Positions 2,663-21,533 of a DNA stretch of 64,000 nt are shown here, one piece after another. The notes under the pieces are model-generated. The model saw nothing but the letters and a program-made list of their open reading frames with translations. It was not told where the DNA came from and searched no databases. The translations under genes and the position numbers were made by a program. Within the stretch, counting starts at the first letter, position 1; each line of letters begins with the position of its first letter. This DNA is from an uncultured Eubacteriales bacterium (GTDB lineage: Bacteria > Acidobacteriota > Aminicenantia > Aminicenantales > Aminicenantaceae): contig CAZIDF010000008.1 in NCBI GenBank assembly GCA_964538085.1, positions 80,466 to 144,465 of the forward strand, read 5' to 3'.

Positions 2663-3493
2663 ATGAAAAAGCTTTTCCTCTTGTTATTAATCTTGACATT
2701 TGCCGTTGGCTTCCCATTCCAGGCTTTTGCCCAATTCACTGACGAAGAAGTGGCCGAAAGGGCAAAGTGGGAGGATTTTCTCACCAATGCAGAAGTCACT
2801 GCGCAGGAACAGCCTTTCAGTGAATCGGAAGCTGTGACAAAACCATGGAAACTCACCCTGGAAAAGGATGGAGTCACAAAAAATGCGCTTTGGAAGAACG
2901 CCGAAGGGCGCATGAGGGGATTTGTGGAAAATTGGAGATGGGAGATCGCCGCGTACCTACTGGATAAACATCTGGGGTTGAACATGGTTCCTCCCACAGT
3001 AGAAAAAAGATTCCAGAATAACCTTGGTTCTTGCCAGATTTGGGTGGATGCCAAGATGAGCCTCAAGGAGAAATTCGAGCAAGATATAAAGACACCTTCA
3101 TATAAAGTTTTTCCTTGGAATCGGGCTCTTTACCTGCAACGGGCGTTCGATAATCTGATAGCCAACGAAGACCGTCATCAGAATCAATACCTTATAACCG
3201 AAGACTGGCGTATGATATTAATCGATCATTCCCGCTCTTTTCGCACTTCCGGTAAATTCGCCAAAAATCTCATCTACGACGAGAATTACAAAGAAGGTCC
3301 CCGTTTGATGAAACAACTGCCTCGCGCATTTGTGGATAAATTGAAAGCTCTAGATGCCGACTCCATCAAAGGTGTTGTCGGTGAATATTTAACTGACAAA
3401 GAGATCGAGTTCGTCCTGATTCGGCGGGACCTTATCATCAAATGGCTGGATAAAGAAATCAAAAAAGAGGGAGAAGATAAAGTATTATATTGA
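2663..3493 (+). CDS. secreted atypical protein kinase, Fam20C/four-jointed-like fold (paralog 2)
   Basis: There is a signal peptide (MKKLFLLLLILTFAVGFPFQAFA). It carries the motifs LIANEDRHQNQ and ILIDHSRSFR, in tandem with its paralog. Its RBS/start lies 28 nt after the previous stop. Confidence 0.5.
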   Translation: MKKLFLLLLILTFAVGFPFQAFAQFTDEEVAERAKWEDFLTNAEVTAQEQPFSESEAVTKPWKLTLEKDGVTKNALWKNAEGRMRGFVENWRWEIAAYLLDKHLGLNMVPPTVEKRFQNNLGSCQIWVDAKMSLKEKFEQDIKTPSYKVFPWNRALYLQRAFDNLIANEDRHQNQYLITEDWRMILIDHSRSFRTSGKFAKNLIYDENYKEGPRLMKQLPRAFVDKLKALDADSIKGVVGEYLTDKEIEFVLIRRDLIIKWLDKEIKKEGEDKVLY

Positions 3494-3949
3494 ATCCGAA
3501 GCTTTGATTTCCTCGATGCTTTTGTGCATAATCAAAATATTCTGATCATTTTCCCTTCGGTACTCAAATCCATTCATGAGCTGCCGGGATAAAAATATAC
3601 CCAAGCCTCCTGTCTGGCCTTGGTTGACCATTTCCTGGATATCCGGATCCGGAGCTTCCCTGGGATCGAAAGGAATACCCCAGTCTCTAATCTCAAAAAA
3701 TAATTTTTTATCCTGATTCCATATTTTCAGGAAAATTTCCCCCTTCTCCTCCGGATAGGCGTAACGAACGATATTGATACACATTTCCAGGAGGGATAAT
3801 TCGATCGAATAGTAAGCTTCTTCAGAAAGGTTGAGGCTTTTGAGTGTTTTTTCCAGAAAGTTGCGAACCTTCTCTATCTCGATGAGTTCGCTTTTTACAG
3901 TTATAGAATTCTCCATCCAAATTGCTATTTCTTCTCTTATTTCTGCCAA
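3485..3949 (-). CDS. anti-sigma regulatory factor-type serine kinase (RsbW/SpoIIAB-like HATPase)
   Basis: It is 154 aa, with a GGLGIFL G2-box-like motif and an N-box-like LEMCINIVRYA, which fits the RsbW family size. No STAS partner is adjacent. Confidence 0.6.
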   Translation of the reverse strand: MAEIREEIAIWMENSITVKSELIEIEKVRNFLEKTLKSLNLSEEAYYSIELSLLEMCINIVRYAYPEEKGEIFLKIWNQDKKLFFEIRDWGIPFDPREAPDPDIQEMVNQGQTGGLGIFLSRQLMNGFEYRRENDQNILIMHKSIEEIKASDSI

Positions 3950-4096
3950 TGCATCGAATGTATCTAGCAGATTCCCTTGATACTTTATATAAAAGCAAAA
4001 TTGATGTCAATCCATAATTGCCAAAATTGCATGGGCGGGATGTGTTGGCTTCACAAAGGGTTTAGAACTGATAAGAACAAGGATATTCCAGTCAGT

Positions 4097-4360
4097 TTAT
4101 TGCAGACTTTGAATGGAAGGCTTTCCATCTGTCGGGGCACTGTCCTCGTCATCATCTTCGATTTCCACTTGAACACCCAAAAGTTCAGCCGTTCCCACAT
4201 ATATCTGCTTAAAGGATTTTTTTGATTCTTGGAGTTTAGCCAAACGTTGCCGAGCTTTTTGCAGTTCTTTCTCCATCTCACCATCGATCCCGTTCAGCTG
4301 ATTTTTGGCTTCATTCATGGTTTTTTTGTAGAGTTCTTCTTGTTCTTTGGTTAATGACAT
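4097..4360 (-). CDS. small coiled-coil hypothetical protein with an acidic C-terminus
   Basis: The 87-aa ORF lies directly upstream of the receiver-TonB gene on the same strand, and its stop is 10 nt before the next start. It is KE-rich and helical. The overlapping ORF 4051..4284 was rejected. Confidence 0.4.
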   Translation of the reverse strand: MSLTKEQEELYKKTMNEAKNQLNGIDGEMEKELQKARQRLAKLQESKKSFKQIYVGTAELLGVQVEIEDDDEDSAPTDGKPSIQSLQ

Positions 4361-4369
4361 TTTTTACAC

Positions 4370-6247
4370 CTATTCTGTTTTATTTTTCTTAAATGCGATG
4401 GAAAATGTTTTCCATACTTTAACATTCACACCATCTTTCTGGGCCGGGGAAAACCTCCATTGACGAACAGCCTCATCACACACTTTCTTAAATGCAGGAG
4501 CCGTTTTTGTTGGATCCAAAAAGGCAACATCCAGGACATTCCCGAATTCGGAGATGAGCGCACGAAAAACGACCGTTTCTTCAATCCCCTGTTGAAAGGC
4601 AGCAGGGGGATATTTGGGATTGACCTTTTTCGTAGCCACAGGAGGCACGTCAACGGATTCAATCGGTACCAAATCCCCAGTCTTGATCCTGTCAGAGGTG
4701 TTTTCTGACTGGATGATGTTTTGGACTGTTTCCTTTAACAGAGGTGAGCTCATTTCAACATCCGATTGTCCTAACTCTTCCTCGCCTGTCTCTTCTACCT
4801 CGATAATCTCGAACTGACGTGACTCAGGCTCGGGAGCACCCTCTTGAAGCATAACCTGACGCTGATTCGAAGGCAGCCCTGTTGTGGACATAAACTCAGC
4901 CGTCGATTCTGGCACTGTCTCCGTTTCACCAGAGTTATCATTAGAAGTCGAGTCAATAGCGGCTGGATCCCCCATGACTCCTTCGAGAGAAGACTCACCT
5001 TGCGTTCCCCCTTGATCATTTTCCTCCTGCGTCACTGGAGTGGAGGAATACTCCAAATTTCCCATGGCGGACGTCGAACGCTCCACATCTGAAATCGATT
5101 TCATGCTTTTTGGATCGGAAAGTGTCTTTGGTTTATCCGGTTTCAAGAAATAATATGTAGCTCCAGCGGCAGCGAGGATCACAAAAACAGTCGAGACTAT
5201 CATCAAAGGAAGGGATTTCCTGATCTTTGTAATAAAAGCGAATATATTTTTAGAACCAGATGTTTTTTCTGGTTCTTCAAAATAGTCTTCAAAGATTTTT
5301 TCCTCGGGCTCTTCTCCCTCAGCCTTTTTTTCTTCTCTGCTCTCTTCTTCCGCAACTTCGATTTTCTCTTCCCGTTCCTTTTCGACAGCACCAACTTCAT
5401 ATTTTTTGCTTTCTTCTATCTCTTCTTCTTTCTGAATCAACTCTTCAATGAGCTCTTCTGTTTTCAGTTCTTTTTCCTCAACTGGAGATTCAACCTCAAG
5501 CTCAAGTGGCTGGACAGGTTCCTTATCATGAATCTTTTCAGCCCTCTGGGCCTCTTTTTGGACTACCCGTGCTTCACTTTTCTTTGCGTCTTCCTTTTTT
5601 TGTACCTGTTCATCTTTTTTTTCTGCAGGTTTTTTATCGATATTCAGTCCGAAATCGGAGAGTGCATCCTGAAGCATCTCATCGACTTCGGAAGTTAGAC
5701 CGTGTTTAACAGCTTTTTGTGCTGTCGCCCTGGATTTTTGGTTTCCATCTGCTGGGGACAGATCTTGTTCTTTGATGCTTCTCTCCATTTCCCTCACACT
5801 TTCTTCAATATCAAACGAAGCGGCTTTTTTCTTCTGGATACTCTTTTTAAGGTCTTTAACACTCCCTGATGTCCCGTTTCCCAATAAATCATGGATGGTC
5901 GTCAATAAATCTTCATTTTTGTAGGGCTTTTCGAAAAAAGCAGCGGCGCCGAAGGTTTCGAGCGCTTCAGATCTATAGTGATCCCCTTTATAAAAACCTG
6001 TTGTGATAATGACAGGGGCGCTTTTTTTGGAGTCTTTAGAAATTTTCCGACAAAGATCGAAACCGTGGAGCTTCAGGAGCATAGGCTCAAGGATGACTAA
6101 ATCTGGATTCTCCGACTCAAACATCAGTAATCCTTCGTGCCCATCTTTGGCTGTTACTACTTGAAATCCCTCTGTTTGCAAAGTTTGTAAAAGCGTATTT
6201 AGGGAATTCTCTTCGAATTCAACGACCAATATTTTTTCGTTTCTCAT
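4370..6247 (-). CDS. fusion protein: N-terminal CheY-like receiver domain (Asp to Glu at the phospho-acceptor), long Glu/Lys-rich linker, one TM helix, C-terminal TonB C-terminal domain
   Basis: The receiver is KILVVEFEEN...DLVILEPMLL...VIITTGF...FFEKPY, with E where D57 is expected. The TM segment is LPLMIVSTVFVILAAAGATYYFL. The C-terminus (VNPKYPPAAFQQGIEETVVFRALISEFGNVLDVAFL...AVRQWRFSPAQKDGVNVKV) matches the TonB_C consensus. Confidence 0.65.
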   Translation of the reverse strand: MRNEKILVVEFEENSLNTLLQTLQTEGFQVVTAKDGHEGLLMFESENPDLVILEPMLLKLHGFDLCRKISKDSKKSAPVIITTGFYKGDHYRSEALETFGAAAFFEKPYKNEDLLTTIHDLLGNGTSGSVKDLKKSIQKKKAASFDIEESVREMERSIKEQDLSPADGNQKSRATAQKAVKHGLTSEVDEMLQDALSDFGLNIDKKPAEKKDEQVQKKEDAKKSEARVVQKEAQRAEKIHDKEPVQPLELEVESPVEEKELKTEELIEELIQKEEEIEESKKYEVGAVEKEREEKIEVAEEESREEKKAEGEEPEEKIFEDYFEEPEKTSGSKNIFAFITKIRKSLPLMIVSTVFVILAAAGATYYFLKPDKPKTLSDPKSMKSISDVERSTSAMGNLEYSSTPVTQEENDQGGTQGESSLEGVMGDPAAIDSTSNDNSGETETVPESTAEFMSTTGLPSNQRQVMLQEGAPEPESRQFEIIEVEETGEEELGQSDVEMSSPLLKETVQNIIQSENTSDRIKTGDLVPIESVDVPPVATKKVNPKYPPAAFQQGIEETVVFRALISEFGNVLDVAFLDPTKTAPAFKKVCDEAVRQWRFSPAQKDGVNVKVWKTFSIAFKKNKTE

Positions 6248-6616
6248 TTTAACCCTTGCCTATTTTATTTTTCATTAGAGTCATCCGACTTGACGCCAAT
6301 ATTGTACTTCAATAGGCTTTTCCCTGGTCAATCACCCTTTGAGGTGATATTGGGGATGATTTTTTGCTCAGTCAGTTTTTCATGAAACCAGCTGGATTAA
6401 CGCTGATGTATTCACCCCTTGCAAATGCAGTATTATCACCAGATTGCTCATAAGACAAATATCGCTTCCAATTTGTTCTTTTTGGCGGTTGCTGGCTTAA
6501 GAGCTGATCAGGGAGGAAGGATTCAAAACCTTCAGACAGGAATAAAAATGCGAGGAGGCCAGATCTCGTTTCCTAAGAGTGAAGGCAGGACCAGGGGCCT
6601 GCGGCATGGCTATGCA

Positions 6617-8587
6617 TCATCGCTCATCCACATCATCAGATAACAATCGAAAAGCTTGAACGCGGCTGTTGTCTCTCTCGACAACGTACACATTCCCGTT
6701 GGAATCGACGATAATTCCCGAGGGATAATTAAACTGGCCATCACCTGCACCTTTATCTCCCCATTTGGAAATGAACTGACCCGACCTATCAAATTTTTGT
6801 ATCCTGTTATTGCCGGAATCAGCGATGTAAACAAACCCGTTTTTATCGAGACACACTCCCATGGGAATATTGAGGTCACCATCATCAGAACCGGCTTTTC
6901 CCCAAGAATCGAGCAACTCTCCATCCAGGGAAAATTTTTGAAGCCGGGTTCTATCCAGAACGTACAATTCATTTTTTTGATTTATGGCAATGGCTGCCGG
7001 GAAAATAAACTCTCCTCCCTCAGTTCCCCTCTTCCCGAAACTTCGTTTAAAATCACCAAGATTCGAGAACTTTTTGATGCAATGGTTTGTGGAATCAGCG
7101 ACATAGACGTTTCCTTCTCTATCGACTGCAATGCCCAAAGGTGTTTTAAATTCAAGGTTATCCGATCCTTCCTTTCCCCATTTTTTTACTAAATTCCCGC
7201 TTTTATCAAACTTCAGAACAGCGTGTTTTTTTTCATCCGTCACAAATATGTTCCCTTGGCTATCGACCGCAATCCCTCCAGGACTTTTCACATTTTTGAA
7301 ATCTTTTCCTCCAGAACTCCAGTTGGGATCGATCTTTCCATCTGGCAGGATTTTTTTTATTTTCGTTTCGCTGTCATCGGCGACATAAAGGATACCATTA
7401 TGATCCACTGAAATGCTGACGGGTCGTTGGAATACCGTGCTGTTCGGAGCACCCCACTTCTTGACATACACATAGGTTTTTCCGGCGAGCAAAACATCGA
7501 TAGAGATCGGATTTTCCCCAAGGGGAATCTCGACTATGCCTTCCCAATCGGCATAATTCTTTTTAGATATTCTTACGTTATGGGTACCGAAGGAGACATA
7601 GGGCAATACGCTATCCGTTACCTGCCCTGTATCTTCCTCGTCCAAAAAGATATTCGCACCCTGCGGCATGGATTTCACTTCCAAATTCCTTCCCAATCTT
7701 TCTAAATCATATTCTTTATCCGTATCTTCCTGGGATAGGAACAGTTCATCTTTTTGGATTTTGTACCCCTCTTTTTCTATCTCAAGAATCACTTTAGGGG
7801 ATTCTGACCTGTATATCAGAGGTGTCACCCCGATATGTTCGCCATTGATCTTTATGCTTGCCTGCTCTGGCCGAGATGAAATTCGAAGGGAATAGTTCTT
7901 GATTATACCAAGATATTCCTTTTCCGCTTGATCAATCAAGCCCCCGATATTTGGATCATAGATATTGCGTGTGATCATCTTTCCATAGGCATAATCCACC
8001 TCAAACATGTTTCTGATTTCTTTGAGAGCCGCATAGGCATCTCCCAAGCCTGAATAAGCCATCCCTGTCCATAAAAATATCTCTGTTGCCAACTGTCTTT
8101 GCTTCTGGATATCTTCCACACGAAAAGTCTTGGCAACAAGGGGACTCAGAGAAACCAAAGCGTCTTCAAATTTATTCTCCTGCCTGATAAATTGCCTGCT
8201 TTCCTCCAACCGGATTTCGATCTTACGGACAATTTCTGATTGGCTCTCGACGTTTAAAGGAATAGAGGCACTGGTTGCCTCGGCCAGCTCATCTTCACTC
8301 ATGGCTCTAACCAGCATCTCATGAATAAATCCCGTGATCTTAAGGCCTTCTTTGTCAAAAGTAACTTTATACCACTCCCCTTGTTTTTCCATTGCATCGA
8401 GAAGGGTGTTTAGAGGAATTCGCGCCAAAGTCTCACCATCGATCTCAGGTGTTACTTTGACAGTGGCGCTATCCACAATGACTTTGACTTTGACTGGATT
8501 TTCTTCTTGAGAAATTGCCGGCAGAAAAACGACTGCCATGAGTAGAATTATCCATGTGAAATGTATTTTTCGTGCCATTCGAGACAT
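6617..8587 (-). CDS. exported NHL-repeat beta-propeller protein with a PEGA-like domain and TPR-like N-terminal region
   Basis: There is a signal peptide. NHL-like motifs repeat (GIAVDSQGNIFVTD, GIAVDREGNVYVAD, GVCLDKNGFVYIAD, GIIVDSNGNVYVVE). A PEGA-like segment IKINGEHIGVTPL is present. Confidence 0.7.
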   Translation of the reverse strand: MSRMARKIHFTWIILLMAVVFLPAISQEENPVKVKVIVDSATVKVTPEIDGETLARIPLNTLLDAMEKQGEWYKVTFDKEGLKITGFIHEMLVRAMSEDELAEATSASIPLNVESQSEIVRKIEIRLEESRQFIRQENKFEDALVSLSPLVAKTFRVEDIQKQRQLATEIFLWTGMAYSGLGDAYAALKEIRNMFEVDYAYGKMITRNIYDPNIGGLIDQAEKEYLGIIKNYSLRISSRPEQASIKINGEHIGVTPLIYRSESPKVILEIEKEGYKIQKDELFLSQEDTDKEYDLERLGRNLEVKSMPQGANIFLDEEDTGQVTDSVLPYVSFGTHNVRISKKNYADWEGIVEIPLGENPISIDVLLAGKTYVYVKKWGAPNSTVFQRPVSISVDHNGILYVADDSETKIKKILPDGKIDPNWSSGGKDFKNVKSPGGIAVDSQGNIFVTDEKKHAVLKFDKSGNLVKKWGKEGSDNLEFKTPLGIAVDREGNVYVADSTNHCIKKFSNLGDFKRSFGKRGTEGGEFIFPAAIAINQKNELYVLDRTRLQKFSLDGELLDSWGKAGSDDGDLNIPMGVCLDKNGFVYIADSGNNRIQKFDRSGQFISKWGDKGAGDGQFNYPSGIIVDSNGNVYVVERDNSRVQAFRLLSDDVDER

Positions 8588-8624
8588 CCTTCTCTTTATA
8601 TATTTTAACCGATAGAGACAAATA

Positions 8625-10364
8625 TTATCTAAATACCAATATTTTCCAAGTGTTTTCCAGTCTCTCCAAAGTTAATGTTTTTTTCCCTTCGAAAATCACT
8701 TTATTGCTTCCCGTTTTTTTGTCAAGGCCGACTAAAAGATGGGAGAAACTCACATCGGCATGGTCCCGATCTATAAAATTGATCTGAAGATCGGCTATTC
8801 GAGAGTTAATATCATCATAGTTATTGAATAACTGCATAGCATCAGCCCTCTTTTTGGACGAAAGTGACGCAGGGCCGATATCGCTTAAAAATGCCAATAG
8901 ATCCTTTTGCTCTTCTGCATTCCTCTGACGTTCGATGATTTGACGAATGGCATTTTCTGAGAGCGCACGATCAGCCAAATCGAAATAACGTTGAGCCTCT
9001 GTGTTGTGGCTGTCTATTTTCAGCGCTTGTTCCATGTTGACCATTGTCTGCTCGTAATTGCCACTTTCATAATCCCGTTTTCCTGCTTTGATGTACCTAT
9101 CTACCTGGTTCTGACTTATTTTGCCTCTTGCTCTTGAAAGATAATCGAGGGCTTCTTTATTCTGTTCGTCTTGAGCCAATATCATCTGGGCGATTCTGAT
9201 AGACTCTGAATAGTCACCTCTCTCAAAGCTTTTCACCAGCTTTTCCGAATCTGTCTCAAAAAATTCCATAACCGGGATCATCGGGCGTGAAACCGGCAAG
9301 GCGCTTTCGACCAAAAGGGGCTGAACATCCCCTGAAAAAGATGTTCTGTTCCCGAATTTTCGGTACAGGAAAAAACCTCCGATCCCAGCTACGATGACAG
9401 CCCCTGCCAAAGCGAGCGGAAGGATAATTTTTTTCTTCTTTTTCGCCGGAGCTTTTATGCCAAATGCTGATTCTCGAATACCAGTCATGGCCAAGGTCTC
9501 ATCAGAGAAATGTGTTATTTTCCTCAAATCGGCGGCCAAATCCGCACAAGAACTGTACCGGCTATCCGGATCCTTTGCTAGAGCTTTTGCAATAATGAGT
9601 TCGAATTCTGGCGGAAGTTCCTTTCTGACCTGGGCTAAGGGTATAGCTTCTTCATTGACGATTTTGTATATCACCGTCGTGATACTTTCGCCATCGAAAG
9701 GCCTCTTTCCCGTAAGCAGTTCGTATAATATGGCACCCAAAGAAAATATATCTGAACGCTTATCTATCTTTTTCCCCATCACCTGTTCTGGCGACATATA
9801 GCTTGGAGTTCCGATCGTTGTCCCGGTTTGAGTTATTGTCGACATCTCGACATGTGCCACTCCGAAGTCACAAATGTGCGGTTTCCCATGGATATCCAGC
9901 AATATGTTGGCGGGCTTGATGTCTCTATGCACGATTCCGCGTTGGTGAGCGAAATCCAAAGCATCACAGAGTTGGAGCATGAGCTTCACGATATCGGGAG
10001 CTGAAAATTTCTTTTTGGAAGAGATCCAATTCTGAAGACTGGGACCCTCGATGTACTGCATGACGATATAGGTCATATCTTTTTCTTTTCCCACATCGTG
10101 AATGGTTATGATATTTGGATGGCCAAGTCTGCCCGCGGCCCTGGCTTCCCGAATGAACCTCAACATAAGCTCATTCTTTTCCTCATCATCTGAGATAAGA
10201 TCGAAACGGATGGTCTTGACAGCGACTTCACGATCTATATCAGGGTCGAGAGCTTTGTACACGATGCCCATCGCACCTTTGCCCAAAAGATCGATGATTT
10301 CGTATTTCCCGATTTTTTCCATACGCCCTTTTCTAAATCCAGAAAAATTGTGTTCGCTAGACAA
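8625..10364 (-). CDS. Hanks-type Ser/Thr protein kinase with a TM segment and C-terminal TPR-like domain
   Basis: Kinase motifs are GKGAMGIVYKA, VAVKTI, HRDIKPANILL, DFGVA and GTPSYMSPE. A TM segment LPLALAGAVIVAGIGGFFLY follows. The start may instead be the downstream Met at about 10322. Confidence 0.85.
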   Translation of the reverse strand: MSSEHNFSGFRKGRMEKIGKYEIIDLLGKGAMGIVYKALDPDIDREVAVKTIRFDLISDDEEKNELMLRFIREARAAGRLGHPNIITIHDVGKEKDMTYIVMQYIEGPSLQNWISSKKKFSAPDIVKLMLQLCDALDFAHQRGIVHRDIKPANILLDIHGKPHICDFGVAHVEMSTITQTGTTIGTPSYMSPEQVMGKKIDKRSDIFSLGAILYELLTGKRPFDGESITTVIYKIVNEEAIPLAQVRKELPPEFELIIAKALAKDPDSRYSSCADLAADLRKITHFSDETLAMTGIRESAFGIKAPAKKKKKIILPLALAGAVIVAGIGGFFLYRKFGNRTSFSGDVQPLLVESALPVSRPMIPVMEFFETDSEKLVKSFERGDYSESIRIAQMILAQDEQNKEALDYLSRARGKISQNQVDRYIKAGKRDYESGNYEQTMVNMEQALKIDSHNTEAQRYFDLADRALSENAIRQIIERQRNAEEQKDLLAFLSDIGPASLSSKKRADAMQLFNNYDDINSRIADLQINFIDRDHADVSFSHLLVGLDKKTGSNKVIFEGKKTLTLERLENTWKILVFR

Positions 10365-10515
10365 AATATCTCAGAAATCCCCCACTTGTCAAGAAAAGAT
10401 TCCCCTGTTGAGTCCACCCCGTGCCAGCTCACCCCTCCGCTAACCCACCTCGCCCTACATTAAGGTAGTATTGTGTCCTATGTTAAATAATGATATACAG
10501 GAATGTTTTTCTGCC

Positions 10516-11610
10516 ATGAAGATTTCTAAACAAAATGCCCGAGAGTTCCAGAAAAAACTCCAGGCTTGGTATTCCACACATCACAGAAAACTGCCATGGC
10601 GGGAAACACAAGATCCTTACAAAATATGGATATCCGAAATCATGCTCCAACAGACAACAGTCCAATCCGTTATTCCCTATTACACCGAATGGATGACATC
10701 TTTCCCAGACATGTTGACATTGAGCAAGGCTCCCCTGCAAAAGGTACTCAAAGCATGGCAGGGATTGGGATATTACAACCGAGCGAAAAACCTCCACCGG
10801 GCATCCAAAATCATCGTGACTGATTTCAACGGCCACATTCCTCAAGATTACGAGGATTTGATAAAATTGCCAGGGTTCGGTCCGTACACAACAGCGGCAG
10901 TCCTAAGCATCGCTTTTGATAAGCCCCATCTGACTATCGATGTCAACATCCGACGTATTATGATGCGGCTATTGAAATGGTCCCAAAAAGCCACCTCCAG
11001 CATCGACAAAAAGCTTCATCTATATTTCTTGCATCTTCTTCCACAAAAAGACATAGGGATATTTAACCAAGCGTTGATGGAACTGGGATCACTCGTTTGC
11101 AGGCCAAAAAATCCCTTGTGTCTGCTGTGTCCGGTGATCGACTTCTGTGGTGCCTACAAAGCTGGCAAACAGGAGGTCATCCCTATCCCCGAGAAGCGAA
11201 GTTATAAAAAAATTGACGCCGTTATTGGAATAATCGAAAAAAACGGGAATTTTTTGATCCAGAAAAGACCTCCGACTGGATTGTTGGCCGATCTTTGGGA
11301 ATTTCCAGGGGGAAAACTAAAAAAAGGAGAAACAGCCGAACAGGCTCTTAGGCGAGAAATCCAGGAAGAAATCGGTTCTAATATCCAAGAGGTACGATTC
11401 CTCACGAAGGTGCAGCACTCCTACACTCAGTTTCAGGTTACCCTCCAAGCTTGGTCATGCACCCTGAAAACTAATCCAGCCTTAGACAAGGATCGTCATC
11501 GCTGGGTGTCTCTCAAAGGAATGCGGCAGTTCCCCTTTCCATCCGGGAGCGCTAAGGTTATCCAATTTTTAGAAAACAGAAGAGAGGCCAATCGCAAGCG
11601 ATGTCCATAA
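10516..11610 (+). CDS. mutY: A/G-specific adenine DNA glycosylase MutY with C-terminal NUDIX-like domain
   Basis: HhH-GPD motifs are LPWRETQDPYKIWISEIMLQQT, LPGFGPYTAAAV and an Fe-S Cys cluster CRPKNPLCLLCP. The C-terminus carries LWEFPGGK...E. An alternative upstream start is at 10471. Confidence 0.8.
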   Translation: MKISKQNAREFQKKLQAWYSTHHRKLPWRETQDPYKIWISEIMLQQTTVQSVIPYYTEWMTSFPDMLTLSKAPLQKVLKAWQGLGYYNRAKNLHRASKIIVTDFNGHIPQDYEDLIKLPGFGPYTTAAVLSIAFDKPHLTIDVNIRRIMMRLLKWSQKATSSIDKKLHLYFLHLLPQKDIGIFNQALMELGSLVCRPKNPLCLLCPVIDFCGAYKAGKQEVIPIPEKRSYKKIDAVIGIIEKNGNFLIQKRPPTGLLADLWEFPGGKLKKGETAEQALRREIQEEIGSNIQEVRFLTKVQHSYTQFQVTLQAWSCTLKTNPALDKDRHRWVSLKGMRQFPFPSGSAKVIQFLENRREANRKRCP

Positions 11611-12653: not shown

Positions 12654-15600
12654 TTATTTTTTGCGCCTCACAATAAATATGGTATACATGGCTGGGACCA
12701 CCACAAGAGTGAGTATGGTGGCAAAGGAAAGCCCGAAGATGATCGTCATGGCAAGAGGATTCCAAAAGGCTGCATTGTCCCCTCCGAAATAAATTTGAGG
12801 GTCGAGACGGGTCAGGAATGTCTGAAAGTTGAAGTTCATCCCGATAGCCAGAGGAACGAGCCCTAGGACAGTAGAAAGGGCAGTGAGAAGAACCGGCGTG
12901 AGACGCGTGGCACCGGCCTGGATAATCGCCTCCATCCTGTCCATCCCCGTTGCGATGCGGTTGTCGATGTAGTCGATGATGATGATACCGTTTTTCACCA
13001 CGACTCCGGCTACAGCGATGATACCCATCCCTGTCATCATGACCGAGATATCGATCCCAAAGACCACAAATCCCAATAATACCCCGATGAAACTGAAAAA
13101 AAACATCGAAATAATGATGAGAGGTTTAGCTATGGAATTGAACTGGGCCACCAAGATGATAAAAATAAGAGCAAGGGCGATGAACATGGCCAGAACCATA
13201 AACTGGCCGGTCTCCTGCTGCATATCCTGTTCACCCGTAAACTGGATGGTATAGCCTTCAGGCATGGGGAATTTGGGCAAAACACGGCCGATGCGGAAGA
13301 TGATCTCGGTGGCATTGTATCCGGAAAGCACGTTGGATGAGATGGTGATAACCCGCTTGTTGTCGATGCGTTGGATGCCCCCATAGCTGGTCTGGTACGA
13401 AATATTGGCCACGGATGCAAGAGGGACCTTATAAGGCATTGAGTTCGGCTCACGGGAAGGTACGGTGATTTCTTGGCTGAGCAACACTCCGAGATCTTCC
13501 CTGTATTTTTTGGCCAAACGCAACTGAATGGGATACTCCTCATCGCCCTCTTTGAACTCCGAAATCTCTAGCCCGTAGATGGCGGTTCGAAGGGCCATTC
13601 CGATCTGGGCAGTGCTCATCCCTAATTTATTGGCTTTGTCACGGTCGAGCTCCAATATCAGCTCAGGTTTGTTGACCTCCATGCTTGATTTAAGCTTTTC
13701 GATCCCTGCAATGTTCAATGACTCGACGAATTCGATGAAACGTTCTGAGATGACCACCAATTCATCTATTTCCTCTCCGGAAATTTCGATATTGATCGGC
13801 ATTCCTGTAGGGGGTCCCATAGCTTCCCGGTCGATACGGATTTGTGCACCAGGAATTCCCTTCACATCTGCCCTGAGTTTATCTAGATATGTGCGCGTAC
13901 GTGGTCCGGTTCGGTATTTGTACTCGACAAACGTTATGGTGACCTTAGCCAGTTTGTCCTGTGCAAATCGCTCGAATAAACTGGCTCCTGCACCGAGTGC
14001 CACGTTGGAAACCACTGACTCCACATCCGGATTGTCTCGTCCCAGTACGTCAAAAACTTTATCCTCCACCTGCTTACAGACCTCGTTTGTAACATCAATG
14101 TGAGTCCCTTCGGGCATGGTGATATACACAAGCAGAGAGTTGGGATCGCCGCTTGGGAAAAATACGATTCTGGGTGTTTTGATCCCCATCAGAAAAAAGG
14201 AAAAAAACAAAAGGAGGACAATGGAAGTGACAACAAGATAGGGCCGCTTTCCCTTGAGAGAAAAGCCCAAGGTCTTCCGGTAAAGATCCAAAAATTTCGG
14301 TAGCACACAGCACTGGAATTTGTCGATAAAAAAGTAAACCACATACTTGAAAAGATAATAAAGGATCAAACCGAAAATCAGGAGGTTCGCCAGCACTCGC
14401 ACGCCGGATACAGTGAAAAACACGATCAAGGCCAAAGCAATACCAGTCAGAATAAGGGCTTTTTTTGATGGGAGCCGGGTGCGCTTTTTATCGTCTTCAG
14501 GGTCTGGTCGTTTCATGAAGGAGACGGCAAATACCGGATTCATGATATAGGCCACTAATATGGAGGCCGCCAGTGTAATGATGATCGTGATAGGGAGAAA
14601 TGACATGAATTTGCCGGGGATTCCGGGTGTGAAAATCAAAGGAAAAAAAGGCGCGATCGTGGTCAATGTCCCGGTAAAAACGGCCAACGCGATCTCGCCT
14701 GCACCTCGTTTGGTAGCATCGATTATGCTCAGGCCTTCCGTCGTCGTGAAATGTCTGTAGATATTTTCTACCACAACGATAGAGTTATCCACCACGATCC
14801 CCAGCACCATGATGAATGACATCAGCACGACCATGTTCATCGTGAATCCCACCAATGGAATGAAGATAAAAGCGATCAGCATGGAAAGGGGGATGGAAAC
14901 GCCTACGAACAGAGCATTGGCTTCGCCCATGAAAAACATCAAGATGAACACGACCACGATGAACCCAAGGATAACGGTGTTGAACAGGTCATCGACAGAA
15001 TTTTTGGTTTGGGTGCTGCTGTCTCCAGTAAGGGTCACGATCAGGTTTTTGGGTGCAGTTTTTTGATAATCGGCCACAATAGCTTTGATCTTGTCAACAG
15101 CGAAGATCAGGTTCTCGCCACTCTTTTTGATGATATTGAGGGTGATAACGTCCTGTCCGTTTAGCCGGGCGTAGCTCTCCCGGTCTTTGTATCCATCCTT
15201 GACCTCAGCGATATCTTTGAGATAGATTCCTTCCTGGAGCATGAGGTTTGCGATCTCATTGACGTTGCTGAATTCCCCCACGACGCGAAGATTTCGTTTC
15301 ATCCCGTCGGTATCGATCTGACCGGCCGATATCGTCAGGTTTTCAAAGGACACGGCGTTCTGGATGGTGTTAAAAGAGAGCCCAGCCGCTTGCATCTTGT
15401 AAAGATCCACATTGATCTGGATCTCTCTATCGAGAGCTCCAGCTATATCGGCTCTCGTGATCTCTTCGAGGGCTTCGATTCTATCCTGGAGTTTTTCGGC
15501 GATCTCCTTGAGATTGACCAATCCGAGGTCTCCCGAGAGGTTGATGAACAGGACCGGGATCTCGGACAGATCGATCCGTGAGATCTGAGGTTCCTGGAAG

Positions 15601-15983
15601 AGATCTGTCGGAAGTTCTGGCCGGGCATCATCCACAGCCTGCTTCACATCGAGATAGGCTTGGGTCTCGTCGGCCGAAAGTTCGAATTCCACAAAAATGG
15701 AGGAATAGTCTTGGATGGAGTTGCTGGAAATCTGTTTAACGCCATCGATTCCTTCCAGCTGTTTTTCGATCGGCCGGGTTATCAGGTTTTCCACATCTTC
15801 AGGAGCCGTTCCCGGATGGATCGTTCCGATCATGAAATAAGGGAATATGATCTCAGGAAACCGTTCTTTAGGAGTGGCATTGTACTGAATGATACCGAAG
15901 ACAATGAGCAAAACGGTGAAAATATAGACGGTTGTGCGATTGGCAATCGCCACATTGGAGGGTTTGAATTCTTTGTACTTCAT
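12654..15983 (-). CDS. RND efflux transporter permease (AcrB/HAE1-like)
   Basis: The protein is 1109 aa with 12 TM helices and two large periplasmic loops. The N-terminus MKYKEFKPSNVAIANRTTVYIFTVLLIVFG is typical of the family. Confidence 0.9.
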   Translation of the reverse strand: MKYKEFKPSNVAIANRTTVYIFTVLLIVFGIIQYNATPKERFPEIIFPYFMIGTIHPGTAPEDVENLITRPIEKQLEGIDGVKQISSNSIQDYSSIFVEFELSADETQAYLDVKQAVDDARPELPTDLFQEPQISRIDLSEIPVLFINLSGDLGLVNLKEIAEKLQDRIEALEEITRADIAGALDREIQINVDLYKMQAAGLSFNTIQNAVSFENLTISAGQIDTDGMKRNLRVVGEFSNVNEIANLMLQEGIYLKDIAEVKDGYKDRESYARLNGQDVITLNIIKKSGENLIFAVDKIKAIVADYQKTAPKNLIVTLTGDSSTQTKNSVDDLFNTVILGFIVVVFILMFFMGEANALFVGVSIPLSMLIAFIFIPLVGFTMNMVVLMSFIMVLGIVVDNSIVVVENIYRHFTTTEGLSIIDATKRGAGEIALAVFTGTLTTIAPFFPLIFTPGIPGKFMSFLPITIIITLAASILVAYIMNPVFAVSFMKRPDPEDDKKRTRLPSKKALILTGIALALIVFFTVSGVRVLANLLIFGLILYYLFKYVVYFFIDKFQCCVLPKFLDLYRKTLGFSLKGKRPYLVVTSIVLLLFFSFFLMGIKTPRIVFFPSGDPNSLLVYITMPEGTHIDVTNEVCKQVEDKVFDVLGRDNPDVESVVSNVALGAGASLFERFAQDKLAKVTITFVEYKYRTGPRTRTYLDKLRADVKGIPGAQIRIDREAMGPPTGMPINIEISGEEIDELVVISERFIEFVESLNIAGIEKLKSSMEVNKPELILELDRDKANKLGMSTAQIGMALRTAIYGLEISEFKEGDEEYPIQLRLAKKYREDLGVLLSQEITVPSREPNSMPYKVPLASVANISYQTSYGGIQRIDNKRVITISSNVLSGYNATEIIFRIGRVLPKFPMPEGYTIQFTGEQDMQQETGQFMVLAMFIALALIFIILVAQFNSIAKPLIIISMFFFSFIGVLLGFVVFGIDISVMMTGMGIIAVAGVVVKNGIIIIDYIDNRIATGMDRMEAIIQAGATRLTPVLLTALSTVLGLVPLAIGMNFNFQTFLTRLDPQIYFGGDNAAFWNPLAMTIIFGLSFATILTLVVVPAMYTIFIVRRKK

Positions 15984-17128
15984 GGCATCCTTTCTACCTT
16001 TTCCTCTTGGATAGAAACGGTCTGACCATCAGCCAATGTCTGGAATCCAAAGGTGATCACGAATTCTCCTGCGCTAAGGCCTTCCCGGATCTCGACCCGG
16101 TCGGAATAATTTTCGCCCAAGGTCACGGTTTGCCGGCGTGCAATCCATTTGTCGTTCTGTTTCTCTGCAACGAATAAAAAGTTAGCGGTTCCTGTATCCT
16201 GGACGATATTTTGAGGAACGGTAATGGCCTCTGTGTTGGTGTAATCGTTTATGGTCACAACCGACAGCATGTTGGGTTTTAAATCTTTCTCCTGAGCTGG
16301 GATTTGAATTTCGATCTGGAAAGTGCGATTGTTCAGATCGATAACTTGAGACACCGCATCGATTTTCAGTTCCATCTCACGCCCCACAACAGGGACCTGT
16401 ACCTTGACAGGATAGTTTTTCCTGACACTGGAGATGTAGTTTTCAGATAGAGCGACAACGATCTTCAGACGAGATAACTGGACTATGCGGATGGTACCGC
16501 GGCCTGCGGCAGCCATCTCCCCTTCTTTGATCATCACATCATCCACAGTGCCGCTGATCGGCGCATAGATTCTGGTAAGTTTGACCTGTTCGTTGAGGGT
16601 TTCCAGTTTTTTCTCTAGGTTTTCTTTATTATTTTTAGCCTGAAGATATTCAAGTTCGCTGCCGATATTCTTTTTCCACAACCTCTCTTGTCGCTCGTAT
16701 ATGGTGGTGACCAGTTGAAGAGAATGTTTAACCTCATCGATATTGCTTTCCAAGATAGCTCCGTCCAATTCCGCCAAAAGCTGACCTTGGTTCACACGGT
16801 CTCCTTGTCGGACATGGATTTTTTTCACAACACCGTTAGATTGAGCAGGAATTAAAATGTTGTTATCTGACTCAATAGTGCCCTGTACTTGGATATAATG
16901 CTGAAAAAGAGAGGGTTGCACTTCGATTCCCCGAACAAACGCTATATCTTCCTTTGGAGATACACTTGTCTCCCCCTCGATCTCATTTTTGAGTTGTTCT
17001 ATCTGGGTATCGAGAGCCTCTCGCTGAGCTTCTAGCCGAGCTAGCCGTGCCTGATTGTCCTGGGGAGGGCCACAAGCAGCGATAATCAGCATGATCAATA
17101 CCGGAATTATGAATGTTTTTTTGTTCAT
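15980..17128 (-). CDS. RND efflux periplasmic adaptor (membrane fusion protein), lipoprotein
   Basis: The true start MNKKTFIIPVLIMLIIAACG carries a lipobox. It has coiled-coil and beta-barrel MFP architecture. It overlaps the RND gene by 4 nt. Confidence 0.85.
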   Translation of the reverse strand: MNKKTFIIPVLIMLIIAACGPPQDNQARLARLEAQREALDTQIEQLKNEIEGETSVSPKEDIAFVRGIEVQPSLFQHYIQVQGTIESDNNILIPAQSNGVVKKIHVRQGDRVNQGQLLAELDGAILESNIDEVKHSLQLVTTIYERQERLWKKNIGSELEYLQAKNNKENLEKKLETLNEQVKLTRIYAPISGTVDDVMIKEGEMAAAGRGTIRIVQLSRLKIVVALSENYISSVRKNYPVKVQVPVVGREMELKIDAVSQVIDLNNRTFQIEIQIPAQEKDLKPNMLSVVTINDYTNTEAITVPQNIVQDTGTANFLFVAEKQNDKWIARRQTVTLGENYSDRVEIREGLSAGEFVITFGFQTLADGQTVSIQEEKVERMP

Positions 17129-17132
17129 GTTT

Positions 17133-18530
17133 TTATCCTTCTGTCGAAACTTTATAGTCGTTGCGAAGTCTGTCCAGCTTGTTTTTTGCATCCAATAGTT
17201 CGGACATGGCCTGAATATAGCTGGACTGAGCAGCAAGGAATCGGTCATTGGCCTGAGTTAGGTCTGTGCTGGATGCCAACCCTTCCTGATACTTGATCAG
17301 TGTTTTTTCGTATACCTTTTGGGAAAGTTCCATATTCTCTTTTACATTGATATAATTTTCGTAAGCAGAAGAGAGGGCATTTTTAGCTCTGGCCTCTTCA
17401 AGAAGAAGACCTTGAGAGACTTGGAGCTTTGTCTGACGGGCCTGATCCAATGCAATAGAGGCCTGATTCACTCGAGCTTTTTGCACACCGCTTTTGAAAA
17501 GCGGGATGTTGAGGTTCACTCCGACGATTTGCGAGCGGTACCATCGTTCATCGAAATCTAAAAAATTGAATCGGTCGCGTTGAGCAGCCCATGATAAAGA
17601 ATAAAAGGCACTGATGGTCGGCCAGTACTGGGCTTTTTCATTCTTGAGATTCATCTCTGCCAGCTTTTCTTGTGTTTGGATCAGACGATAATCGATGTTC
17701 TCTTCCAAGTCGAGACTTCCTTCCAATGCATTTTGTACATCTTGCTCCGAGATGATCTCTTCTAAGCTTTCCGTGAGCTCTATCTCTTCGCTGAGGTCGA
17801 TCCCCATCTGGAATTTCAGCAATTGATATGCCGTTTCCGTTTGCTTCTCGAGGTTCTGGAGACCATTTTTAAGCGCTGTCACCGAGATCTGGATGACATC
17901 GGCATCTGTTTCCTCGACAAAACCCTCATTATAAAGTTCACGAATCTCGTACAATGTCTTTTCCAGATTTTGCAGGTTTCCCTGGAAGATTCTTTGGCTC
18001 TCCTGAGAGACAAGGATCAGGTAATACGTTTGGGACACTGTTTCCATCACATCTAACTGGGTTCTTTCCAAACCTTCGGTGGCCAAACGTTTGTAGATCC
18101 GGGAAGTCGCCAGACCGACAAAGTAACTTCCGTTGAACACAAGCTGTTGGATTTGCAGATTGAGATTGGCATTGTGTTGCGTGCCGAACTGAATCTCGAT
18201 CTTGTCATTAGGATCATTGAAAAAATCTGGAATAAGTACAGTGGGCAGCTCGATGTTGTTGTTGTAAGCAAGCGAGGTGGAGATCTGAGGCAATCCTGCC
18301 CCGATGGTTTCTCTTATCCTTCTCTCGGTCACAGCCACATTCATCTCGGACTTGATCGACTCATAGTTGTGCTGGATGGCATAAGTTTGAGCCTCCTGCA
18401 GGCTGAAGGTTTTGAGACTTTTTTCAGCAGATGCATTAGGCTTGATCAGAACCATCAGCATCAATCCCATACATACTATCTTTGTAAGATTCCGACTGAG
18501 ATGGCTTTGATTAATAGTTTGAACCGACAT
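17133..18530 (-). CDS. TolC-family outer membrane efflux protein
   Basis: It is 465 aa with a signal peptide and the two-repeat OEP architecture. It ends 4 nt before the MFP start, forming an OMF-MFP-RND operon. Confidence 0.85.
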   Translation of the reverse strand: MSVQTINQSHLSRNLTKIVCMGLMLMVLIKPNASAEKSLKTFSLQEAQTYAIQHNYESIKSEMNVAVTERRIRETIGAGLPQISTSLAYNNNIELPTVLIPDFFNDPNDKIEIQFGTQHNANLNLQIQQLVFNGSYFVGLATSRIYKRLATEGLERTQLDVMETVSQTYYLILVSQESQRIFQGNLQNLEKTLYEIRELYNEGFVEETDADVIQISVTALKNGLQNLEKQTETAYQLLKFQMGIDLSEEIELTESLEEIISEQDVQNALEGSLDLEENIDYRLIQTQEKLAEMNLKNEKAQYWPTISAFYSLSWAAQRDRFNFLDFDERWYRSQIVGVNLNIPLFKSGVQKARVNQASIALDQARQTKLQVSQGLLLEEARAKNALSSAYENYINVKENMELSQKVYEKTLIKYQEGLASSTDLTQANDRFLAAQSSYIQAMSELLDAKNKLDRLRNDYKVSTEG

Positions 18531-18736
18531 GATTCATCCTTTATTCTGATATAAATTTCCTTTTAGATATTTAAAAGGATGAGGAAAAAGATCGTAGGTT
18601 TATCTAAAAAGCATCGACCCTAAAATTCTTTCTTATTTTCCTCTTCTAAGTTGTTAAATACGTATTTTAGCATAATTGGTTCACTATGTATCGGGTTTTT
18701 CTCCTTATCTGGAAAAAATAGGTTCACTGGCAGTCC

Positions 18737-18829
<93 letters not shown>

Positions 18830-18878
18830 ACCGGAGGATTCCGGTCCTCATTGTAACACTTTTACAACCGGAGTCAAC

Positions 18879-18968
18879 TGGCGGAGGGAGAGGGATTCGA
18901 ACCCCCGTCACGATTGCTCGTAAAGCGGTTTTCAAGACCGCCGCCTTCAACCACTCGGCCATCCCTCC
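18879..18968 (-). tRNA. tRNA-Ser (anticodon TGA)
   Basis: The reverse complement reads GGAGGGATGGCCGAGTGGTTGAAGGCGGCGGTCTTGAAAACCGC...GGGGGTTCGAATCCCTCTCCCTCCGCCA. It has a long variable arm and anticodon TGA. Confidence 0.85.
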
Positions 18969-18969
18969 G

Positions 18970-20316
<1,347 letters not shown>

Positions 20317-21137: not shown

Positions 21138-21521
21138 ATGGTAAAAGAAAAATTCGAAAAACTCGTGGAAGAAGCATTGTTAGATCTCCCAAAAGAATTC
21201 AAGAAACTCATGGACAATGTGGTCGTGATGGTGGAAGAGGAGGCTCCTCAAGAGGTTTACAGACAAACAGGAGTCCATCCTTTCAGCAGGATATTGGGCA
21301 CCTACCACGGGGTTCCATACCCTCACAGGGGGCCATATTATGGGAACATTCTTCCAGATAGAATCACCATCTATCAAAATCCGATCGAAGAGATCTGCTC
21401 CACCGAGGAAGAAATCAAAGAGCAAGTTAAGAAAACTGTCCTGCATGAGATCTGGCACTATTTTGGACGAACGGACGAAGAAATTGTTGAGTTGGAGAAG
21501 AAAACTCTCATGAAAAAATAA
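21138..21521 (+). CDS. small zincin-like metallopeptidase family protein
   Basis: It is 127 aa with the HExxH motif HEIWHYFG near the C-terminus. Confidence 0.5.
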   Translation: MVKEKFEKLVEEALLDLPKEFKKLMDNVVVMVEEEAPQEVYRQTGVHPFSRILGTYHGVPYPHRGPYYGNILPDRITIYQNPIEEICSTEEEIKEQVKKTVLHEIWHYFGRTDEEIVELEKKTLMKK

Positions 21522-21533
21522 ATAGGAGAAAAA

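Follow-up and report, generated by a model that had tools for sequence, protein, structure and literature searches.

In the present study, we analyzed a 64,000-nucleotide (nt) stretch of contig CAZIDF010000008.1 (the window, in whose coordinates all positions are given) and found that the gene at 4370..6247 on the minus strand, referred to as RT, encodes a 625-residue bitopic protein that joins a degenerate response-regulator receiver to a TonB C-terminal domain (TonB_C), the two being separated by a linker, a single transmembrane (TM) helix, and a spacer. RT is followed on the same strand by the gene for an 87-residue cytoplasmic protein, SMALL (4097..4360), and this two-gene pair at 4097-6247 is the conserved unit of the region. 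The reading that we favor, with middling confidence, is that RT is a bitopic inner-membrane scaffold of an Aminicenantes-type, Acidobacteriota-related bacterium for signaling or tethering across the envelope and not a TonB transducer driven by the proton-motive force.

Domain architecture of RT

The RT gene is a single open reading frame (ORF) with an ATG start, no internal stop codon, and a stop codon at 4370-4372; its stop-to-stop frame reaches only four codons upstream of the start, and M1 is invariant among homologues. The fusion of a receiver with TonB_C in one protein had been proposed in an earlier annotation made from the letters of this DNA (the sequence-only reading), and both domains were indeed found above the Pfam gathering cut-offs: Response_reg at residues 6-118 (E 8.1e-17, 61.8 bits against a cut-off of 30.2) and TonB_C at residues 543-620 (E 1.7e-10, 41.6 bits against a cut-off of 24.6). 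The NCBIfam matches to RT were limited to the receiver portions of OmpR/PhoB/PleD-type regulators. Hydropathy analysis placed the sole hydrophobic segment at approximately residues 345-368, leaving approximately 344 residues in the cytoplasm, close to the 330 or so that had been claimed, and approximately 257 in the periplasm. In an AlphaFold2 (AF2) model based on a 44-sequence family alignment, the receiver had a predicted local distance difference test (pLDDT) score of 83-90 and TonB_C a score of >90 from approximately residue 520 onward; the TM helix spanned residues 350-367, three cytoplasmic helices were present at 147-161, 184-198, and 257-306, and the remainder was disordered.

From its N terminus, the chain begins with the cytoplasmic receiver head of CheY-like fold (residues 1-122; 5882..6247, on the minus strand as are all parts of RT), which was delimited by Pfam, alignment with CheY, AF2, and Foldseek. 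The cytoplasmic linker that follows (residues 123-344; 5216..5881), delimited by composition, conservation islands, and AF2, is acidic, Glu/Lys-rich as the earlier annotation had stated, and mostly disordered, with 27% Asp and Glu and 19% Lys and Arg. Its helix at 184-198 carries the conserved VDEMLQDALSDFGL, that at 257-306, in which Glu, Lys, and Arg make up 64% of residues, includes the conserved ELKTEELIEELI, and the juxtamembrane motif IFEDYFEEPEK is also conserved. The TM helix (residues 345-368; 5144..5215) has the sequence SLPLMIVSTVFVILAAAGATYYFL. The periplasmic spacer (residues 369-519; 4691..5143) is, by composition and AF2, disordered, acidic, and Ser/Thr-rich, with approximately 7% Pro (12 Pro in residues 373-540), and the chain ends with the periplasmic TonB_C (residues 520-625; 4373..4690), which has a YP motif and WRF. 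The C-terminal 108 residues match the solved C-terminal domains of Vibrio TonB2 (2k9k, E 2.6e-5) and E. coli TonB by sequence, the PDB entries matched being 2k9k, 1xx3, and 2grx, in line with the canonical TonB_C that had been claimed. The sequence-only reading was thus right on all structural points, including the match to Response_reg profiles, the lack of which would have refuted it.

Recurrence of the architecture was surveyed by a homologue search in 5.8 billion protein clusters, which gave 80 clusters, derived from JGI, ENA, NCBI, and Logan assemblies, that hold both Pfam domains in one chain of approximately 530-690 residues, with identity down to approximately 30%. The named members among them are from Candidatus Aminicenantes and are annotated as "TonB family protein". 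The conservation score was 0.84 for the receiver, 0.78 for TonB_C, and 0.69 for the TM helix, with short conserved islands within both linkers.

Degenerate active site of the receiver

Alignment with CheY, Spo0F, and PhoB indicated that D12, D13, D57, T87, and K109 of CheY correspond to E10, F11, E54, T83, and K107 of RT. The codons for E10 and F11 are at 6215-6220, that for E54 at 6086-6088, that for T83 at 5999-6001, and that for K107 at 5927-5929. The acidic pair by which receivers bind Mg2+ is not kept, E10 and F11 being at its positions, and the phospho-acceptor Asp is replaced by E54, which lies within LVILEPML, both as described in the sequence-only reading; the switch Thr and Lys (T83 and K107) are retained. 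E54, T83, and K107 are each present in 80 of the 80 homologue clusters, and P108 is likewise invariant, whereas F11 is kept in 79, the remaining one having a gap, and position 10 is Glu or Asp in 79. The fold itself superposes on the receivers of MicA, YycF, and PhoB with a TM-score of approximately 0.9 (Foldseek). No HisKA or other histidine-kinase domain was found among the scanned ORFs of window positions 1-20 kb, and none recurs near the family loci. A PF00072 domain without the residues required for phosphotransfer is termed a pseudo-receiver (PMC12632262), and the head of RT is one by this definition, predicted to be incapable of Mg2+ binding or Asp phosphotransfer.

The Glu at the acceptor position, to which the sequence-only reading drew attention, is not remarkable in itself, because Glu is the most frequent replacement of the acceptor Asp in pseudo-receivers (PMC12632262). 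It has been discussed as a partial phosphomimetic, a hypothesis that was called open in a 2025 review (PMC12632262). The pair of F11 and E54 mirrors the PhoB D10A/D53E mutant, which is "constitutively active" according to its PDB title (2jb9), and E54 may, together with T83 and K107, keep the receiver active-like and prone to dimerize. All receivers of the TonB_C-linked clade are degenerate, although by differing routes: the pattern is [D/E][F/Y]...E...T...K in the kinase-less branch and NY...D...T...E or DY...T...M...K in the kinase-bearing relatives described below, the lesion common to them being the replacement of the Mg2+-binding D13 by an aromatic residue. Because the D57 position is thus E, D, or T across branches, the on-state mimicry that the sequence-only reading had suggested is possible for the branch of RT, where it is unproven, but does not extend to the whole clade.

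The Glu-type receivers have further features in common outside the active site, namely an invariant motif of K59, H61, G62, F63, L65, and C66 (MLxKLHGFDLC) and, on the beta4-alpha4 face, a two-residue insertion with G84-F85-Y86...Y91...E94-A95. These features could represent a partner-binding surface or, as each chain has one His and one Cys, a dimer-spanning site for metal binding or redox chemistry.

Family distribution and kinase-bearing relatives

In a scan of 185,579 species-representative genomes, full-length relatives of RT were confined to Aminicenantes-type metagenome-assembled genomes (MAGs), although the scan relied on family-specific motifs, which independent receiver-TonB_C fusions in other phyla would escape. 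Their NCBI placement is the candidate phylum Aminicenantota, and certain record titles say "Aminicenantia", which is the GTDB name of a class inside Acidobacteriota. The record titles of many loci (L004-L006, L008-L010, L017, L020-L022, and L037) read "uncultured Eubacteriales bacterium", in some cases with full Aminicenantes synteny, and the contig of L014, which shares its receiver with an Aminicenantia MAG, has been assigned to a "Candidatus Methanofastidiosia archaeon" bin; the former titles are probably placeholder taxonomy and the latter contig probably a binning contaminant.

The homologues in Thermoanaerobaculia and unclassified Acidobacteriota are longer (890-1430 residues) and contain a Hanks kinase between the receiver and the TM helix, a feature that, like SMALL, goes beyond the earlier annotation. 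The HRD, DFG, and SPE motifs of these fused kinases are intact, and their catalytic loop is HRD[VI]SPQN throughout, with Ser where Lys is usual. This arrangement of receiver (REC), Pkinase, TM helix, and TonB_C, followed by SMALL, is present at L025, L027, L030, L033, L035, L038, L039, L042, L064, L084, and L085, and the protein P0099 has the same architecture; by class, 17 loci belong to the kinase-less RT type and 11 to the kinase-bearing type. No Pkinase match was found by Pfam in the RT protein of the window. RT shares with the family the replacement of D13 by an aromatic residue, a TM helix without His, TonB_C, and an ORF for a helical protein of 80-95 residues starting 4-38 nt downstream. 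Because the relatives in other Acidobacteriota have a Hanks kinase and are likewise accompanied by SMALL, RT represents the kinase-less branch of an uncharacterized two-gene family of Acidobacteriota-type MAGs. The idea that the linker of RT is a decayed kinase domain was rejected, as it gave no Pkinase signal and hidden Markov models of the linker islands matched kinase-bearing proteins only marginally.

Related forms were also observed at one chromosomal slot, from which the RT-SMALL pair of the window is located away. A stand-alone Glu-type receiver of 135-160 residues (DY...E...T...K, with KLHGFDLC) lies directly upstream of accD-folC at eight loci (L016, L018-L023, and L044), with ATP synthase genes after accD-folC in the seven of them examined for these genes, and a pair of (REC-)kinase-TonB_C and SMALL genes is upstream of accD-folC at eight others (L024, L030, L031, L033-L035, L038, and L052), which suggests a domain-loss series at this site. 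A further variant, P0081 from Aminicenantaceae (L087, JBMCVK010000009.1; genes at 3915-4954 and 6001-8226), is a soluble protein with a Glu-type REC, a Hanks kinase, and a second REC; directly upstream of its gene are those for a Roadblock/LC7 (MglB-like) protein and a small GTPase of Ras/Arf-like type, and a PAS/GAF gene comes after it, a setting reminiscent of the MglA/MglB-GltJ connection in Myxococcus.

SMALL, the helical partner

The SMALL gene starts 9 nt past the RT stop codon. A homologous ORF of 80-95 residues was found on the same strand, 4-38 nt downstream, at 31 of the 31 family loci at which it could be examined, and in the reverse direction, three of three divergent SMALL members, picked regardless of context, follow a REC-(kinase)-TonB_C gene. 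SMALL is more conserved than RT, with 49% identity at the greatest distance versus approximately 30-32%, and the residues Y11, E32, A41, Q44, K48, and L61 are invariant, with T14 in 30 of 31. AF2 predicted one long amphipathic helix (residues 5-61, pLDDT >90), along which the hydrophobic residues have a heptad-like spacing, and a disordered acidic tail. SMALL has no Pfam domain, all its matches in Pfam and NCBIfam being sub-threshold coiled-coil noise, and its family comprises 233 representative clusters among 1.84 billion proteins. SMALL is thus an obligate partner, probably co-transcribed with RT, and we infer that it binds the cytoplasmic region of RT.

A search for fusions of SMALL of the Rosetta-stone type was uninformative, the long matches being mostly frame-shifted miscalls with Arg-rich tails. 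The others were a TonB_C fragment running into SMALL, a tandem duplication, and a TIR-domain protein, one of each. This last, P0311 (362 residues), is the sole non-artefactual long protein among the matches; in it, a TIR_2 domain precedes three helical repeats that resemble SMALL (E 2e-13 with the SMALL profile).

Sequence features of energy-transducing TonB proteins

The sequence-only reading had left two roles for RT, energy transduction to the outer membrane and signaling across the envelope, and the former turned out to be the less likely half. As controls, we used ordinary TonB_C proteins from the same genome scan, including a subset of 21 encoded adjacent to ExbB and ExbD (ExbBD-adjacent), several of them from Acidobacteriota. 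A His in the TM helix was present in none of 30 family members and in 16 of the 21 ExbBD-adjacent controls, usually in a visible S-x3-H context, although the criterion is not absolute because the other five controls also lack it. The TM helix of RT being without His, the S-x3-H signature of TonB is absent. Genes for ExbB/ExbD were within the flanks of 0 of 31 family loci, compared with 15 of 42 ordinary TonB_C loci (Fisher p = 7.6e-5), and no MotA/TolQ/ExbB-type gene was found at any family locus. In the 64 kb of the window, none of ExbB, ExbD, TolQ, and TolR was found either by a phmmer search of every six-frame ORF, with the E. coli proteins as queries, or by Pfam on 35 ORFs. The Pro content of the spacer was 7% in RT of the window and 11% on average in RT proteins, versus an average of 18% in the ExbBD-adjacent controls, a soft criterion because a few controls are also Pro-poor. 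Moreover, the TM helix lies behind approximately 344 cytoplasmic residues, the norm for TonB being a short cytoplasmic tail. By these comparisons, RT has a true TonB_C and yet lacks three sequence-level hallmarks of an energy transducer.

The window also contains a gene for a TonB-dependent receptor, identified by its Plug and beta-barrel domains in Pfam, at 55066-56973 on the minus strand, approximately 50 kb from RT; before it lies a gene for a sodium:solute symporter (53460-54977). Among the family loci, only L085 (7524-13013) has an adjoining TonB-dependent transporter; there, the genes after REC-kinase-TonB_C and SMALL encode a Peripla_BP_2/FecCD/ABC_tran importer, a TonB-dependent receptor, and CobU.

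Comparison with known systems

RT resembles TonB itself, as in E. coli TonB and Vibrio TonB2, in its bitopic topology with the N terminus inside, its periplasm-spanning spacer, and its homologous TonB_C. It differs in its long cytoplasmic part, compared with a few residues in TonB, in its lack of S-x3-H, in its acidic, Pro-poor spacer, in the absence of exbBD nearby, in its obligate small cytoplasmic partner, and in its kinase-bearing sister proteins. The nearest characterized analogue, topologically, is GltJ (AgmX) of the Agl-Glt gliding machinery of Myxococcus xanthus, in which a cytosolic region is connected through one TM helix and a flexible periplasmic stretch to TonB-C; the cytosolic part is a protein-binding switch, with MglA, MglB, and AglZ bound by its ZnR and GYF domains (PMC11135422). 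RT follows the same order of parts, from a cytosolic effector region through a single TM helix to a periplasmic TonB-C on a flexible arm; however, its cytosolic part consists of a pseudo-receiver and charged helices with a small helical partner, without ZnR or GYF by Pfam, and the family loci contain no agl/glt or TolQR-like genes.

Other pseudo-receivers, such as FrzS and plant PRRs, have a PF00072 fold without the catalytic residues and retain the Thr and Lys, as RT does. The output of RT is unlike theirs in that a TM helix leading to a periplasmic TonB_C takes the place of a DNA-binding or enzymatic domain, and the words "TonB" and "transmembrane" do not occur in the review of pseudo-receivers (PMC12632262). 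A single-pass inner-membrane relay of the state of an outer-membrane TonB-dependent receptor to the cytoplasm is known from FecR-type cell-surface signaling, which involves a TonB-dependent transducer, an anti-sigma factor, and an ECF sigma factor (PMC12036975, PMC11637429). RT would be similar to that relay in its proposed role; however, it has no anti-sigma, FecR, or ECF sigma domain by Pfam, its periplasmic module is TonB_C itself, and the cytoplasmic module of the family is a pseudo-receiver, to which some members add a kinase. The kinase-bearing sisters, for their part, are similar to PASTA kinases in combining a kinase, a TM helix, and an extracytoplasmic binding domain and in being encoded with a small coiled-coil cytoplasmic protein. 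PASTA kinases, which include PknB, PrkC, and StkP, are transmembrane Hanks kinases with extracytoplasmic sensors, and GpsB is a small coiled-coil adaptor. The family differs from them in having TonB_C as the sensor in a diderm periplasm and an added N-terminal pseudo-receiver, and RT of the window differs further in that the kinase domain was lost or never present.

Interpretation and alternatives

If RT is a trans-envelope scaffold, TonB_C would be a long-reach periplasmic hook on the TonB box of an outer-membrane barrel or on the cell wall, without transduction of the proton-motive force, and the state of this contact would be linked to a cytoplasmic interaction platform in which SMALL joins the helices of the linker and the pseudo-receiver. 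The latter would probably be kept active-like and dimer-prone through E54, T83, and K107. In the sister proteins, the output of the platform would be Ser/Thr phosphorylation, and in the kinase-less RT, it would have to be partner binding, possibly with another kinase in trans. A signaling protein fits RT better than a force transducer because of the approximately 344 cytoplasmic residues and the kinase in its relatives.

Several points weigh against this interpretation. The absence of a TM His is shared by five of the 21 ExbBD-adjacent control TonBs, and TonB_C of RT is canonical by sequence and compatible with force transduction through Exb or Tol proteins encoded elsewhere. The organism must also possess a working TonB system because a TonB-dependent transporter is encoded at 55066-56973, and the TonB, ExbB, and ExbD genes of that system are not in the window. 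GltJ, in addition, is thought to act with a TolQR-like motor. As regards the receiver, there are pseudo-receivers for which phosphomimicry has been disproved (PMC12632262), and the sister receivers carry Asp or Thr, not Glu, at the acceptor position; because of these counter-examples and branches, the view that the receiver is locked on is tentative.

A more specific proposal, which we regard as possible but rather doubtful, is that the family as a whole is a hitherto unrecognized trans-envelope signaling route of Acidobacteriota-type bacteria, in which TonB_C senses the TonB box of an outer-membrane receptor or the wall and a Hanks kinase under the control of the pseudo-receiver acts on or through SMALL. 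RT of the window, lacking the kinase, would then serve as an adaptor or decoy that E54 keeps locked in an active-like form, and the near-invariant T14 of SMALL would be a candidate phosphorylation site.

It is unlikely, in our estimation, that RT is a genuine TonB paralogue that pulls a subset of TonB-dependent transporters with ExbB/ExbD- or TolQ/TolR-type motors encoded elsewhere, its pseudo-receiver, with SMALL, gating or localizing it. Such a role would account for the canonical TonB_C with YP and WRF that matches the solved TonB C-terminal domains, for the TonB-like topology and periplasm-spanning spacer, and for the TonB-dependent transporters in the window and beside the kinase-bearing gene of L085; GltJ, of the same topology, has been proposed to function in energy transduction with the Agl motor (PMC11135422), and a TM His is not universal even among the ExbBD-adjacent controls. 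However, the comparison of 0 of 30 with 16 of 21 for this His, that of 0 of 31 with 15 of 42 for Exb/Tol genes, the acidic, Pro-poor rather than Pro-rich spacer, the large cytoplasmic part, and the complete Ser/Thr kinase in the chain of the relatives all argue against it.

A passive structural tether or positioning factor is likewise improbable. Here, TonB_C would be held on peptidoglycan or an outer-membrane protein, and the pseudo-receiver and SMALL would anchor a cytoplasmic assembly, for example, one for division, polarity, or the cytoskeleton, without any signal. The long, disordered spacers flanking the membrane in cytoplasm and periplasm are consistent with this, as are the charged linker helix, which could be a spacer in view of its 64% of Glu, Lys, and Arg, the nature of SMALL as a coiled-coil-type helix without an enzymatic domain, and the presence of related forms in the housekeeping slot beside accD-folC. 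Precedents are FrzS of Myxococcus, a localization-type pseudo-receiver (PMC1974792), and the TonB-like SjdR of Anabaena, whose role is structural and septum-related (PMC8262864). However, the kinases of the sisters, catalytically intact by their motifs, argue for signaling family-wide, the invariant switch residues E54, T83, and K107 suggest that the conformational state matters, and no division or cytoskeleton genes recur nearby at the 34 loci whose neighbors were compared. Finally, we rejected the possibility that RT is an artefact, either two genes, for a response regulator and for a TonB, that an overlooked frameshift has merged, the flaw that the sequence-only reading had allowed for, or a decaying pseudogene. 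Only the unusual architecture and the low-complexity middle would speak for this, whereas the ORF is uninterrupted, 80 independent clusters share the chain, its length, and its invariant residues, the species-representative scan gave full-length matches, with 17 RT-class loci in all, and the linker contains conserved islands.

Genomic neighborhood

The neighbors of RT were analyzed by unbiased clustering at the 34 loci. Upstream of RT in the direction of transcription are two genes on the minus strand. The nearer (6617..8587) encodes an exported or anchored protein with PEGA and an NHL beta-propeller (Pfam NHL E 6e-44, PEGA E 2e-17) and an N-terminal hydrophobic segment, and is present at 7 of the 34 loci. 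The farther (8625..10364) encodes a membrane Hanks Ser/Thr kinase (Pfam Pkinase E 1e-59) with the canonical loop HRDIKPAN, a TM helix at approximately residues 313-331, and a 250-residue extracytoplasmic tail without a Pfam match; it is upstream of RT only in close Aminicenantes relatives (six loci). This kinase is unlikely to be a split-off domain of the fused type, given its loop of HRDIKPAN compared with HRD[VI]SPQN and its own TM helix and periplasmic tail.

Beyond SMALL, a gene for an RsbW-like anti-sigma-type ATPase (HATPase_c_2; 3485..3949, minus strand; Pfam E 4.6e-27) is present at 8 of the 34 loci. Two tandem plus-strand genes at 1811-2635 and 2663-3493 encode secreted Fam20-like paralogues of approximately 275 residues that are 46% identical, and the pair is conserved beside the RsbW-like gene in close Aminicenantes relatives. 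Although the genes that had been called Fam20-like kinases are real, the label rests on marginal local matches only: the sole similarities to known proteins are marginal Fam20C/HipA_2 matches in Pfam, with Fam20C at E 0.089, and that of a short catalytic-loop-like segment, ANEDRHQN...LIDHSRSF, to the Fam20B xylosylkinase (PDB 5xom, E 2e-4), in which no stretch is significant by itself.

The kinase-rich setting that had been emphasized is real as regards the Hanks and RsbW-like genes, but a partnership with RT did not hold up. The Hanks, PEGA/NHL, RsbW-like, and Fam20-like genes each occur at only 6-8 of the 34 loci, in close Aminicenantes, and at none of the kinase-bearing class, and a Dak2/DegV gene on the opposite strand lies between RT and the kinase/NHL pair at L001 and L002. 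They were rejected as functional partners on these grounds and are treated as lineage-specific synteny because of their restriction to those few loci. In a promoter and terminator scan of 3300-10600, signals were not above the shuffled expectation.

Two further sets of genes were observed. Downstream of the RsbW-like gene, L001 has a STAS (anti-sigma antagonist) gene (21354-21701), and L002 has a STAS gene and one for an FHA-GAF-SpoIIE phosphatase (17831-20100); together, the RsbW-like, STAS, and SpoIIE proteins would form a partner-switching module, the remainder of which would fall beyond coordinate 1 of the window. A complete and ordinary RND efflux operon at 12654-18530 on the minus strand, comprising OEP (17133-18530), an HlyD-type adaptor (15980-17248), and an AcrB-type pump (12654-15983), is syntenic in L002.

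Significance of the receiver-TonB_C family

Glu pseudo-receivers are already known to be common, and TonB_C with a cytoplasmic effector region has one studied precedent. What appears to be new is the combination of a pseudo-receiver with TonB_C and an obligate SMALL, for which the database label is just "TonB family protein". The sequence-only reading had presented the architecture as apparently undescribed, and our literature search, whose coverage left most subscription journals outside, turned up no relevant publication on a receiver-TonB_C fusion, on TonB with a kinase in Acidobacteria, on the range of output domains joined to TonB, or on TonB in Aminicenantes.

TonB_C is nearly always read as part of an energy transducer for iron or nutrient uptake, and the evidence on RT points to another use, in which it may serve as the periplasmic arm of a signaling or tethering protein with a pseudo-receiver inside and, in sister lineages, a kinase. 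If this use is confirmed, metagenomic surveys of iron uptake should not score RT-type genes as TonB systems. The RT-type proteins would then join GltJ of Myxococcus as the second characterized class in which a TonB_C protein carries a cytoplasmic switch module, and their natural, invariant D-to-E and D-to-F pseudo-receiver would be useful for probing the phosphomimetic-Glu hypothesis. They would also constitute an unstudied two-gene module of Acidobacteriota type, its named members being from Aminicenantes and other Acidobacteriota, and should the Hanks kinases of the family prove to signal through SMALL, it would represent a Ser/Thr-kinase counterpart of FecR/ECF cell-surface signaling.

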